This document shows positions 19,172-41,099 of a DNA stretch of 64,000 bases, in pieces. The stretch comes from Eledone cirrhosa. Lineage: Eukaryota. The notes under the pieces were generated by a model, which saw only the letters and a program-made list of their open reading frames with translations, was not told where the DNA came from and did no database searches. Position 1 is the first letter of the stretch; each line of letters starts with the position of its first letter. The stretch is taken from assembly GCA_964016885.1 (NCBI GenBank), contig OZ024745.1, positions 53,196,001 through 53,260,000 on the forward strand, read 5' to 3'. Both the position numbers and the translations under genes were made by a program.

Positions 19172-19370
19172 AACGAAGGAGGTGTGGTTGGGAACCAGAT
19201 GGACCATAACCCACCAGAGTACACATTACTTACGGTAGTAGAGTGGGTAATAGGAAAATGTTTTACCCCGACGGCAGAGCTCAAGCCTTTCCGACGGCTA
19301 TTTCTGGATGAGTTCAGAAATAGCCTTCGAAACGGCTTGAGATCTGCCGTAGGAGTCAAACATTTTCCTA
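19172..19370. mobile_element. Fold-back insertion, family F1 copy A (arms of about 55 bp plus a tail of about 77 nt)
   Basis: ATAGGAAAATG...GGCTATTTCTG and CAGAAATAGCC...CATTTTCCTAT form inverted arms, flanked by (TA)n. Confidence 0.85.
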
Positions 19371-19464
19371 TATATATATCTATATATGATTATAGATCTC
19401 TCTCTCTCTCTATATATATATATATATATATATATATATATATATATATATATATATATATATA

Positions 19465-20355
19465 CTAGCAGTGGTAACCCGCGTTGCACGGGATAAGGTA
19501 TTTTGGAACGCGGGCCGCCAATAGACCTAAAAACTGCATGCCTTGACAATATGTAAAGAAAATAAACCGAATACTCTGATGGCTGGATAATCTTTAAGAT
19601 TTTCCTCGATGAAGTAGGAAAAATGCAGGTTTTCACCTAATGCGGGCCCTAGGACATCAAGAAGATGAATTTTTTTTATGTGCATAATATGCCTTGACAT
19701 TTCGGGAAAATCGGCTAGACGTAACGCCTCCAAAAAGCCCTAAGAAGCTGAAAAAATGAAGTTTTTCACCGAATGCGGTCCCTAGGCCATAAGAAAGTTG
19801 GATTTTCTTTGCTTACGGTATGAAGAAGAGACTGACTAATACATAGTTACAATTTCAAGGAAATCGGTCTGACGTAACGCCTCAAAAAAAACCCTGAAAA
19901 TGTTAAATAACGCAGTTATTCACCTAATGCGGGCCCTAGGCGACACAAACAGTTGAATTTGTGCATAAGACTCCCTGAAACATAAGTAATACACATGTAA
20001 ATTTTGAAAAAAATTGGTTGGGTACTTCTCGAGTTTTAGGGATTCGAACTCACACACACACTCAAACAGACATCCTCAAGGAAGTGACGTAATGCAGACA
20101 GACAGATATTATAAGGGCGCGACGTTATAAATATGTATCTATCTAAAAAGAGAAAGACTAAGAATTATAGAGCGAGATCACTAAATCCCCTAATGTGGTC
20201 CCTGGGGCTTAGAGTGTTTGAAATTTGTTTTGCTCAGAACACTCCGTGAAACATAAGTATTACATGTGTAAAGTTTGAAAGCAGTCGGTTGGGTGGTTCT
20301 CGAGTTTTAGGGATTCGAACTCACACACACACACACAGAAATCCTCATTTATATA
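19465..20355 (-). mobile_element. Non-autonomous Helitron-like element
   Basis: The minus-strand 3' end is the hairpin CCCGTGCAACGCGGG followed by CTAG (19465-19468). Internal subrepeats of about 130-150 bp (TTCACCTAATGCGGGCCCTAGG near 19632, 19765, 19919, 20188). The 5' end is blurred in (TA)n. Confidence 0.75.
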
Positions 20356-20749
20356 TATATATATATATATATATATATATATATATATATAGTTTTTTAA
20401 TACATAAACAAAGAAAGCTTTAAGCAATACTCCGACCGGCTTCCGTCTCACTCAACAAACATTAGGATATACCTTAGTATAATCCCAATTATACGTTTGG
20501 GGTGCTAACTATACGTATTTTGCGGATAGCCAGTTGTATTATTTTATATGAGACATAATTAAAATACATCTCTCTTTCCAAACGATCGTTTCATTATAAG
20601 TTTTCTACAAATTGGGAAAATAATGTCCAGGTTATGTAGAAGCCTGTAGGAATATATGTAGGTGGTCACTTATAAATCATCAGTGGATGCCCGACAAATA
20701 TCGATAAAAAAAAAACAACCTTACCGATATTAATATTCAGCGATGGTAC

Positions 20750-21090
20750 GAATTAGTATATCTACTAACATATATATACAGATGCATACTTATGCCAGCA
20801 AATACATAGGTTTTGTCTTAGTAACTTTGTGGTTCAATGCATGGGGATGCAGAACAATAATATGAAAGACGTAAAATAAGAAAGTTATAAAAATTAACTT
20901 ACTTACTAAAATTTCACTCCTTGGTTGTTTACTTCTCGAGTTTTAGGGATTCAAACTCACACACACACACACACGCACTCAAACAGACATCCTCAAGGAA
21001 GTGACGTAATGCAGACAGACAGATATTATAAGGGAGTGAAATTTTAGTAAGTTAATTTTTATAATTTTCTTATTTTACGGCTTTCATATA
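20750..21090. mobile_element. Fold-back insertion, family F2 (same family as 49368-49961), with a captured loop
   Basis: Arms at about 20860-20920 and 21033-21090 are inverted. The tail 20750-20860 matches 49368-49480. The loop 20921-21032 matches 20014-20117. Confidence 0.85.
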
Positions 21091-21857
21091 TATATATATA
21101 TATATATATATATATATATATATATAGAGAGAGAGAGAGAGAGAGAGAGAGAGAGAGAGAGAGAGAGAGAGAGAGAAACAGACAGACATACATTTCTATG
21201 GATAAAGATTGTTATATATATATATATGTATGTGTGTGTGTATGTATTAATATATATTTGCATTCTAATACTTTACATCATTTCGGTTTGAACAAATCTA
21301 TGGAAATCTATGATTTGTAGTTGTCTGATTCAATTCATTGTTGTTTTCTTATATTTTGGTTTTTATTTTGTTTTTCATCCAAGACTTGGATAATCTTGCA
21401 GTATGTCTTAACAACCTATTTTATCTTAACTTACCAATTCCCCTACATGTCTCACAACATCTTTGTATCCCTGTGTAATGAGACTATAAAATCTTTGCTA
21501 ACTTTTACAGACTAATACCTTTGTTTTAATGGCTATCATTTCCATAAATAACGTTTATATATCTCTTGATTCCTCCCCTTTCACCGTGCTGTAATAACTA
21601 CCTTATCATTTGAACCACTTCTATTCGTACATCAGAACCACCATACTAACTGCATATAGATATGGATGGAGGCTCATAAGCAGAGTAGTGCAGAGTAGTG
21701 CACATCATCTGGCTCATTCTGACTAAGATAAATGCCGTACGTTAATGAACTTAAAAAATACATCATGACTGATGTTTCTATGTACCTGAATGATCTCCTA
21801 TATACCTGAAATACATAAGTACACACACACACATGCATACACATACGTACACACACA

Positions 21858-38150: not shown

Positions 38151-39040
38151 TAGTTCAGGTATACAGTGCTGTGACGTTAGGATAGGATTCGAGTAGCAGA
38201 TGTGTAGATTGTTGCCTATATGCTTCTAACCAGTCGAATATGCCTGCGGTGCCATTGCTCCACCGCTGTGGGACTTGTGAAGATGCACATAAAGATGGCA
38301 AGGCTACACACATAGCACCAACTCCACCCCCGCAGTGTTGTGGCCAGTGACAAGCCAAACCAAGAGAACAGGACAAATAAGAGGATCGGTTGTGTTATAG
38401 TCATTGAGTTTAACCTCTCCATGCGGTGTAGCCGTACTCACCACACTTAACCAATTGTAGGTTGGTGATGTCTTTTGTTAAATGTCCTTTGACACTGTGG
38501 AGATCATCTTCCCTTTGACAGCTCTGCATTTTATGCTGCTGGGTTTCCACTTATCCTATTCCCCAGACTAGTTGGAGAGCCAGTTTGGTCGTTGACCACC
38601 TGACCATGGATCAGGTTGTACTGGGGTACATGGTACCAGTAACAGACAGAAACCTGAACTGACAATATTTATATATATATATATATATATATATATATAT
38701 ATATATATATAGTGACGAAACATAAGTCAATTGCATGAACTCATAATCCTTTATTTACTGCTATATATATCTCGATGATAGCCACCGAATGGCCACGACC
38801 CCATCAGGCAGCCAGTCAGTTCCTAGATATGCCAGCTCTGTGTGCACAGTGTTGATGGTATCAGAGCCTTGGGACATTTGAGCTTGTTAGGAATATTTTG
38901 ATGTTGTCAGCAGGAATAGTCTTGATTCTCATTGGTCAGTTTGTAGATGGTAGTAGGTTGGCATTTGACCCCAAAGAGGCAGGTGGTTCTGCAGGGTTCA
39001 AACCAACAGGCAAGATATATATATATATATATATATATAT

Positions 39041-39235
39041 AGCAAAGGAATTGTGGTAAGGAACCAGATGGACCATAACGCACCAGAGTACTCAATACTT
39101 AGGGTAGTAGAATGGGAAATAGGAAAAAGTATGACCCCGACGGCAGAGCTCAAGCCGTTTCGACGGCTATTTCTCAGTCCATACATAGCCGTCGAAATGG
39201 CTTGAGCTCTGCCGTCGGGGTCATACTTTTTCCTA
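39041..39235. mobile_element. Fold-back insertion, family F1 copy C
   Basis: Inverted arms ATAGGAAAAAGTATGACCCCGACGGCAGAGCTCAAGCC... with a spacer of about 16 nt and a tail on the left. Confidence 0.88.
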
Positions 39236-40741
39236 TATATATATATAAATATATGTTATATATATTATCGATCATCCAACTATGTTATATATATATATAT
39301 ATATATATATATATATATATATATATATAATAAAATATGGAGAAAAATACTGCAGGTAGCGCATGGATAACATGTAATAAAATGAGTCCCTCATCAGTGA
39401 TTTGCCGACGATCATAGATATTTCATTGCATTAAAAATCATATACCTCACGTCGGTGCAATAATAACTAAAATAAGTTATTAGGACAATTAAAACGCGTA
39501 AAGCGAGTGAGACAGGAGAACAACAAAGAGTATAGCTAACCGTAGGGGAATGAAACAAGCTTCATAATTATTCTGTTTAGCATAAGCTAGGTGAATATAT
39601 GAGCGCTTTATATATATATATATATATATATAACATAGTTGGATGACCGATAATATATATAACATAGTTGGATGACCGATAATCACACCAAACCGAAGTA
39701 CTGTGATCCTTGTGATTTCGAGATATACAACCACTGACACTGTTACGAAGACCAGAAAACCATACTCCATAATATTGAACCAAGTGATTGATTTGTGCGA
39801 CCAAAATAACACCACACATATATTGAACTAGGAATATTGGATCCTCCGTCAATGTCTGGGTGAGCAAAAATAGATTTCTATCTGCATTGGAATTTACGAA
39901 CTTGTGCATCTGCTGTGGTGTCAAAAACAAACGCACATGACCGCACAGATGAACAATGGACTATGCCACGTGGGTTGAACCTGCAGGTGAATTGAAGGAT
40001 GTGTAACTCTGATATACAGATTATTTATTATTATGATGTATAAACTTGACATAACTATTATCATCTTATATTCTCTCAACTAATCACATTTGATTATATT
40101 TCTCTATCCCGTTTTCTCCCCCCATATTTATAATATTTTTATTTGAAAAAATCGGTTTTTTTTACATTGTGTTTTTCCCTTTCTAATACTTGCTTATATT
40201 CCTTTATATATTCTCTAAATATTTTTTTATTTATATATATATTTTTTTATCTTTATTCTTATTTTCACTTTTATCCTCTTTTATATTTTACCTTACTCTT
40301 ACTTTTATACCTTATTATAGTGTAATCTTCTCCATGCCTTATTATAAATTATTACTTATAGATTATTATTATTACTCTTTTTCATGCACTGGGTAATTGC
40401 TGGCCTTGTGCCTAAAGTAGAAACAATTATTACTCTTTTTCCATTTCTAATTACCTCATGTACTTTCTCCTCCGTTATATATATATTGTATGCCCTTTGT
40501 GTGTGTGGAGCCTCTGCACACCCTCTGCACCCTATTATCGACGCCACCCCATCTATGGCTCAAATAACCACTCGACTCCCGGGAATGAATATGACCACAG
40601 CTAGTAAAAAAGGACCCACACCCACCCTCACGCACCAAAATTAGACTTATCGTCCCCTGCTTTTGCTCTTTACTCACTTTACTCTTTGTTCTTGAATGTT
40701 TGGTTGGTAGAGTCCAGAACACCAATCAAACCCCTTTTATA

Positions 40742-40786
40742 GCTCTGACGAATCCCACGGTTACGTAAGGAAGAAACATTGTAAGC
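40742..40786 (+). ncRNA. Minimal hammerhead ribozyme motif in a probable pLTR (about 40435-40832)
   Basis: gct-CTGACGA-atcc...ggaa-GAAA-cattg-TA-agc, followed about 45 nt later by (TA)n. Confidence 0.55.
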
Positions 40787-40895
40787 CAATAAAAATCTGT
40801 TGATGTTGTAAACGCTCTTGTGTTGTTTATCATATATATATATATATATATATATAAATGTATATATATATATATATATATATATATATATATAT

Positions 40896-41099
40896 AACGA
40901 AGGAAATGTGGTAAGGAACCAGGTGGACCATAACGCACCAAAGTACTCAATACTTGAGGTAGTAGAGTGGGTAATAGGAACCAGTAAGACCCCGACAGCT
41001 GAGCTCAAGCCGTTTCGACGGCTAATTCTGGACTCCAGAGTCCAGAATTAGCCGTCGAAACGGCTTGAGCTCAGCTGTCGGGGTCTTACTGGTTCCTAT
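40896..41099. mobile_element. Fold-back insertion, family F1 copy D (perfect arms of about 62 bp, 2-nt spacer)
   Basis: Centre CTGGACTC-CA-GAGTCCAG near 41036; tail 40896-40973. Confidence 0.9.

Follow-up and report, generated by a model that had tools for sequence, protein, structure and literature searches.

How can four copies of one short palindromic element share both ends and still differ at their centres? The question is posed by F1, a family found in a 64,000-nt stretch of Eledone cirrhosa DNA (assembly GCA_964016885.1, contig OZ024745.1, positions 53,196,001 to 53,260,000 of the forward strand; here the window, numbered from its first letter). We confirmed F1 copies A (19172-19371), B (27871-28046), C (39041-39236) and D (40896-41099), all in one orientation and related by pairwise blastn E-values of 1e-72 to 1e-29, and a search of the window with blastn (word 7, E<=1) found no fifth copy. 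Their anatomy suggests that F1 copies are likely 3′-end stubs, each a piece of pseudo-long terminal repeat (pLTR) plus a tail, of a single abundant Penelope-like element (PLE) that targets (TA)n. The inverted arms were probably produced by two target-primed complementary DNAs (cDNAs) that ran off a fixed RNA 5′ end and were joined at their far ends.

All four copies have the same layout: between flanks of (TA)n, a tail of 78 nt is followed by the left arm, the centre and a right arm that terminates in TTCCTAT. The original prediction, made from the letters alone, had described a common tail of about 77 nt, a common tail-less end and differing centres, all of which the alignments bore out. The element portion spans only 60-140 nt, with 45-61 nt of arm length duplicated in most copies. 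Tails and tail-bearing arms lie on the minus strand and tail-less inverted arms on the plus strand; centres are written below as left-arm end/right-arm start in the coordinates of copy D. Copy A comprises a tail (19172-19249), the outer end of which is the presumed distal start of the reverse transcriptase (RT) in (TA)n, a tail-bearing arm (19250-19308) and, following a 2-nt insert TG, an inverted arm from the AGTCC-equivalent base 19311 (19309-19371 with the insert), giving a centre of 41032/41034. Copy B has a tail (27871-27948) identical to that of D, and its tail-bearing arm (27949-27993) and inverted arm (27992-28046) overlap by a GA microhomology at 27992-27993 (centre 41018/41028). Copy C consists of a tail (39041-39118), a tail-bearing arm (39119-39174) and a 1-nt insert, C, followed by an inverted arm from AGTCC at 39176 (39175-39236 with the insert; centre 41029/41034). 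In copy D, a tail (40896-40973) and a tail-bearing arm reaching the shared endpoint AGTCC (40974-41034, with read depth ending at 41034) precede a 4-nt insert CCAG and an inverted arm from 41039 (41035-41099 with the insert; centre 41034/41034).

The tails are homologous and non-identical, with 0 differences per 78 nt between B and D, 9 for B/C and C/D, 11 for A/B and A/D, and 12 for A/C. Copies B and D, predicted to be near-identical outside the junction, differ there at one position. By eye, an imperfect direct repeat (CTGGTTCCT...TACC on the minus strand, 40904-40922 versus 40966-40984) is present in B and D at both inferred RT start regions, and may mark two priming sites.

The centres vary in an ordered way. 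The tail-less arm begins at one and the same base, AGTCC, in three of the four copies (A, C and D), and the tail-bearing arm is shorter than its partner in A, B and C, equal to it in D and longer in none. The original prediction had placed all centres within about 25 nt of a hairpin, AGCCGT-CGAA-ACGGCT (41050-41065, plus strand), and proposed a template 5′ end or RT stall at that hairpin. Proximity held, with right arms starting 11, 5, 11 and 11 nt upstream of it in A, B, C and D, but the shared endpoint is not in the hairpin, which is interrupted only by the left-arm break of B. A fixed template 5′ end is still the best reading; the site lies elsewhere, in the loop of another predicted helix considered below. 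The hairpin itself was rejected as the stop site, given the 11 nt that separate it from the shared endpoint. Insertion of one F1 copy into another was likewise rejected, as the joint connects two 5′ ends.

Variation within the arms bears on whether these palindromes were copied or rebuilt. The first 45 arm bases contain 14 variable columns, of which seven are subfamily variants occurring in both arms of every copy, seven are private to one arm, and none is arm-specific and shared. Because subfamily variants are mirrored and arm-specific variants are never shared, the palindromes were likely rebuilt rather than copied as a miniature inverted-repeat transposable element (MITE); judged from the alignment, rebuilding or homogenisation would have taken place in at least three backgrounds (A, C and B/D). 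A Tc1/mariner-type MITE with a TA target and terminal inverted repeats would account for short, palindromic, high-copy, TA-flanked units. Yet in every copy the 78-nt tail extends beyond the left repeat, so that the left terminus is not a repeat, both the tail end and the tail-less end lie in (TA)n in sequencing reads, the arms contain a hammerhead-like 3′ half, and there are four centres and no shared arm-specific variants. We consider a MITE highly improbable. The earlier claim that F1 was not copied in this way thus stands, with many other junctions in reads, described below, pointing in the same direction.

The arms also provide a clue regarding the parent. Read on the minus strand, an arm has C-GAA-A, then a helix of 5-6 bp closed by the palindromic loop GAGCTC, and then GUC and GGGGUC. 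Judged by its sequence, C-GAAA with helix III and GUC, some 20 nt away from the tail-less end, constitutes the putative 3′ half of a hammerhead of type I. This half (C11.1-GAA-A15.1, helix III, U16.1-H17) occurs in seven of the eight arms, with a G-U variant in B and D; dinucleotide shuffling of the 139-nt monomer yields it in 48 of 5000 trials. In D it lies at 40994-41017 on the minus strand (C-GAA, 6-bp helix III, GAGCTC loop, GUC; predicted cut 40994/40993) and its mirror at 41056-41079 on the plus strand; the hairpin AGCCGT-CGAA-ACGGCT represents another way of folding the 3′ strand of helix II, GAAA and the 5′ strand of helix III. No complete hammerhead had been visible at the outset, and none emerged: a motif search gave no CTGAnGA...GAAA match in any F1 copy, and no Rfam hammerhead was among the matches listed (150 of 165), where F1 drew only sub-threshold microRNA and snoRNA matches, including mir-127. 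F1 copies are thus incomplete as ribozymes. The GATGAG...CGAAAC stretches once taken for remnants fared less well. GATGAG in copy A was rejected as a core remnant, since it spans the junction, where reads carry T rather than G before AGTCC, and it was probably created by that junction; the actual candidate remnant is C-GAAA with helix III and GUC.

Sequencing reads extended the comparison beyond the window. Part of the stretch is contained in 14 of the 24 runs listed (nine with half of its words or more), and four runs were aligned to 40896-41050 at 80% likeness: X1, X2 and X3, from among the nine, and the raw-read run X24. X1 is possibly the source of the stretch; runs X10-X14, sharing fewer than five words, were set aside. 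No RNA data set was among the runs listed, which has no bearing on expression. F1 is a very abundant repeat, matching 39 contigs in X1, one in X2, 15074 in X3 and 22152 of 12.47 million raw reads in X24. Among the loose-end rows listed (319 further rows exist), (AT)n precedes 40974 in 3443 X24 reads, 75 X3 contigs and 3 X1 contigs, and precedes the tail end at 40899/40907 in 432 and 1342 X24 reads. Loose ends are also present behind 41034, in one X1 contig, 107 X3 contigs (agreement 0.51) and 856 X24 reads (agreement 0.44), and on this basis some F1 copies, in organisms A and C, continue upstream. A diverged subfamily with the same tail keeps the GAGCTC loop and GUC (loose end behind 40980; 2422 X24 reads and 155 X3 contigs).

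Extension of the consensus in the 5′ direction, as the original prediction had advised, succeeded in part, affording 30 upstream letters and no parent open reading frame (ORF). CUGAnGA is absent from these letters; the box could lie further upstream, a helix II region of 52 nt being present in another element at 49842-49893. They pair with 41020-41029 in a predicted helix that places AGTCC in its loop (equally stable in 20 of 2000 shuffles), and the upstream strand of this helix is kept in none of the four centres. The upstream letters also resemble a second helix III and cut site terminating exactly at AGUCC, yet with AAA in place of GAA.

Nine opposite-strand joints were listed in the reads. 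One unites both outer ends and eight are of centre type, of which six restart at 41031-41034. In four of the eight, the tail arm breaks off within the tail itself (at 40936, 40952, 40963 and 40970) and the partner arm starts at 41031-41034. Extra letters between the two sides of a joint, five in number, occur in one row only. A tail end is connected straight to a tail-less end on the opposite strand (40896/40974) in 21 reads (2 starts). X1 depth is zero at 41040-41050. Scarcity of the D-type centre in reads was considered as evidence and rejected, being explained by enzyme cutting and hairpin loss; a cluster of X24 molecules ending at 41027 probably reflects an enzyme cut at AATT.

F1 was then compared with known systems; the sources cited here and below are represented by the portions consulted. 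PLE insertions typically combine an inverted 5′-truncated copy, a tail at one end and a (TA)n bias (PMC8557442, PMC3846280, PMC8969392). All four F1 copies possess a head-to-head inverted 5′-truncated copy, with orientation inferred from the hammerhead half, and a one-sided tail; reads show two (TA)n-bounded ends, and the target is (TA)n. These features, together with the hammerhead 3′ half near the end, identify the anatomy as that of a PLE insertion, and a PLE parent is likely. F1 accordingly resembles a PLE insertion unit in its sequence organisation, with membership formally lacking an ORF. Endonuclease-positive PLEs (Penelope/Poseidon, Neptune, Hydra and Naiad; PMC8557442, PMC3846280) share with F1 the head-to-head inverted copy, the one-end extension, the (TA)n target with no readable target-site duplication, a motif resembling a hammerhead that lies some 20 nt from the 3′ end, and short microhomology or an insert at the joint, so that the head-to-head arrangement is already known for PLEs. 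PLE hammerheads belong to type I; a long helix II and a palindromic helix III are frequent among them, and pairs on opposite strands 100-700 bp apart are known (PMC4209133); a table of the Hydra clade places the cut close to the 3′ end (PMC8557442 supplement). F1 differs from these elements in its missing hammerhead 5′ half, its long helix III (5-6 bp) and the lack of an ORF. The 5′ half would be missing because the joint lies within predicted helix II.

Non-LTR retrozymes (bioRxiv 10.64898/2026.07.22.740005) are, like F1, non-coding, PLE-related and endowed with type I hammerhead sequence. They form head-to-tail tandems of complete ribozymes, whereas F1 is head-to-head, single and devoid of the 5′ half of the core; F1 was therefore rejected as a retrozyme, having no head-to-tail tandem units with complete type I hammerheads. 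F1 also differs from products of long interspersed nuclear element 1 (L1). Inversions of L1 are not known to involve 3′-end duplication or a fixed second priming site, in contrast to F1, in which 45-61 nt are duplicated in most copies and the second start is fixed. L1 twin priming nonetheless parallels F1 in its two opposite cDNAs, its joint formed by non-homologous or microhomology-mediated end joining, and an extra G at complete 5′ ends (PMC11702581). No literature account deriving PLE inversions from twin priming was found, subscription papers lying outside the search.

How would such an insertion arise? Taking these observations together, we infer priming on both strands, end-joining and a template 5′ end at AGUCC. 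At insertion, each strand of a TA repeat would prime one cDNA. The first would begin at the tail end, the second 78 nt further in, at what becomes the tail-less end. Both would copy toward the fixed RNA 5′ end at AGUCC, which the inner-primed cDNA would mostly reach and where the tail-primed cDNA would halt, if it did not halt sooner. The cDNA ends would then be joined head to head, with 0-2 nt of microhomology or 1-4 extra bases. A biochemical precedent is provided by the Anolis Poseidon protein PAc, a predicted dimer that cuts and extends both strands (PMC11167929). PAc has two RT start sites that delimit its tail and acts on both strands of the target, as is proposed for F1, and its target is AT-rich, like that of F1; the two (TA)n-bounded read ends of F1 match these two start sites. 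In the portion consulted, that study ties the two sites to the tail and does not address the formation or junctions of inverted copies. The dual-strand activity of PAc, its predicted dimer and its two RT starts all favour the two-cDNA model, as do the arms of a second-family stub at 20750-21090, the clearest case, described below.

The original prediction had instead spoken of fold-back junctions. In this alternative, each PLE stub would acquire its inverted arm by self-priming or fold-back of a single strand at a hairpin. Inverted-junction palindromes of PLEs have been read as self-priming (PMC3846280), both arms of each F1 copy come from one subfamily, the endpoint lies in the loop of the predicted helix with upstream sequence, which 20 of 2000 shuffles equal in stability, and copy D and the element at 27105-27496 are near-perfect palindromes. 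A strand primed at the tail and snapping back can copy only sequence already made, so the inverted arm should not extend beyond the tail arm. It does extend beyond it in A, B and C, in four of the read joints and in the element at 42308-43181, where the inverted arm carries sequence missing from the tail arm, and these cases argue for two cDNAs. Moreover, no centre retains the upstream strand of the natural helix, and at 20750-21090 foreign filler separates arms that start from the same base. With the tail arm being the shorter one, we regard fold-back as quite unlikely, and the earlier proposal of this mechanism is not upheld.

What defines the fixed end at AGUCC? It is not the hammerhead cut. 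Transcription initiation is our leading guess, although its chances fall a little short of even. The letters preceding AGTCC in reads are TT, which creates a match to YYANWYY, the initiator consensus; this match was noticed post hoc and 1.1% of window positions share it. In three of the four arms reaching the endpoint, the parental T at -1 is replaced by G, the outcome expected of a G derived from the cap, which has been reported for L1 (PMC11702581). Internal promoters are also known in PLE pLTRs (PMC3846280). It is for these three reasons that a transcription start leads, and this step remains a weak one in the scheme. Cutting of the RNA within a loop is a lesser possibility, and we hold an RT stop to be improbable, to the same degree as use of an older stub as template, with the end then representing the centre of that stub.

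Several observations weigh against two joined cDNAs or against a PLE parent. No F1 parent ORF or full pLTR was found within the window, and the exact F1 motif had 0 matches in public metagenome, genome and viral contigs. It likewise had 0 in paper text and 0 in the supplements of PMC8557442 and PMC13282606, where FASTA line breaks may hide matches; the consulted portion of the latter, an O. vulgaris repeat paper with its supplement, contained no link to F1, and its repeat library may hide a match. The F1 tail is 78 nt long versus a published 30-40 nt for endonuclease-positive PLEs. The arm-length polarity amounts to three of three informative window copies (p=0.125, one-sided). The two arms of D are not independent, and G at -1 may be inherited from a D-like ancestor. 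The read evidence derives from 4 of 24 runs, mostly of organism C. The upstream sequence consists of 30 displayed letters from one X1 contig, with low agreement in X3 and X24, and joints were called at 80% likeness with a short side of 21-55 letters and 1-4 starts each. The reference leaves the family after 41034, which favours joint calls there, reads are biased against perfect hairpins, and the 7144 X24 molecules that end at 41027 would mask B- and D-type centres. No joint at the predicted hammerhead cut, 40993, is among those listed. Junctions also recur, with one common junction in 47 X3 contigs.

This recurrence, together with the centres themselves, fits a further possibility, in which a single ancestral palindrome like D was propagated whole, or acted as a hairpin RNA template, with later erosion of the centres by deletion and homogenisation of the arms by conversion. 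Palindromes tend to lose their centres. Those of A, B and C each align to the centre of D by one deletion (4, 28 and 8 nt, respectively) plus a few substitutions, the 28-nt gap of B falls between GA repeats, and A and D have G before AGTCC in common. The original prediction had named later deletions from one palindrome as an outcome that would count against it, and the alignments go some way toward that outcome; the difference between B and D in particular may, on sequence grounds, reflect later deletion. Against a single ancestor, none of the 14 variable columns is arm-specific and shared while seven are mirrored, copies with upstream sequence exist in organisms A and C, and unrelated families show the same anatomy, their centres in one case (62108-64000) falling within an RT ORF. 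We judge an ancestral palindrome unlikely, though less so than fold-back, and prefer the joining of two cDNAs.

Other (TA)n-flanked elements of the window show related anatomy. The second-family stub at 20750-21090 consists of a tail and an arm to 20920, a filler at 20921-21032 and an arm from 21033. Each arm begins with the base that directly follows a predicted hammerhead cut, and 112 nt of foreign filler, 88% like 20014-20115, separates the two; the cut is predicted from the long copy at 49367-49961, and this is a single locus at which the filler could be a later gain. The stub is possibly a trace of in vivo reverse transcription of ribozyme-cut templates. In the long copy, a tail accompanies a palindrome, each arm of which contains the core of a type I hammerhead; GAA is intact in the left arm only, and the helix II region, at 49842-49893, measures 52 nt. 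In a third family (42308-43181, with a third copy at 60570-61171), a tail-bearing arm of about 203 nt faces a tail-less arm of about 587 nt, matching the polarity of F1. The element at 41107-41520, directly beside copy D, groups with 10256-10480 in a family whose members combine a palindrome with a tail of roughly 90 nt and have a hammerhead core on each strand, while 50232-50672 is a (TA)n-flanked palindrome with a complete minimal hammerhead in both arms, and 27105-27496 is a (TA)n-flanked, near-perfect palindrome of 392 nt. Complete hammerhead motifs thus occur in some tail-plus-palindrome elements (41107-41520, 50232-50672 and 49367-49961), and tails of the other window families measure about 90-120 nt.

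Coding remnants are also present in the window, which is microsatellite-rich, eukaryote-like and contains LINE-type RT ORFs. A PLE ORF remnant at 33653-35563 includes a weak RVT_1 match and GIY-YIG, a CxxC linker and one in-frame stop at about 34508, with no hammerhead seen at its 3′ end. A second, PLE-like RT/endonuclease ORF (about 61764-63185, minus strand), for which a Pfam search gave no match, lies in a palindrome at 61455-64000 with arms of at least 941 nt that are 100% identical, a centre near 63054 bearing a short slipped duplication like that of copy D, and a hammerhead-like core near 61490. Neither these PLE ORFs nor the other tail-plus-palindrome elements of the window have DNA in common with F1. 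LINE-type RT remnants (RVT_1, zf-RVT) at 14850-17195 and 29711-31983 are 74% identical.

A wider and more tentative idea links these families. A dimeric RT-endonuclease might use two fixed start sites on one RNA to prime a pair of cDNAs, a form of twin priming with the second start built in. Both cDNAs would run off the RNA 5′ end and be joined there, yielding the inverted pLTR and the tail together, in which case junction hotspots would be a fossil map of template 5′ ends, recording a ribozyme cut in 20750-21090 and a capped start inside hammerhead helix II in F1. If this is true, an F1 start inside helix II would leave the 5′ ribozyme copy unable to cut its own mRNA.

The formation of tandem and inverted PLE structures has been called unsolved (PMC8557442). 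The F1 arrangement is itself known and probably inert, and its value is that of a natural data set on the mechanism of PLE inversion. With four copies in 64 kb, F1 is abundant, and it is short enough to be mapped whole. That the tail arm is never the longer one and that the tail-less arm starts from one base are two countable predictions, and they discriminate between joining of two cDNAs and fold-back. Mislabelling of such stubs as MITEs or microRNA hairpins is also likely.

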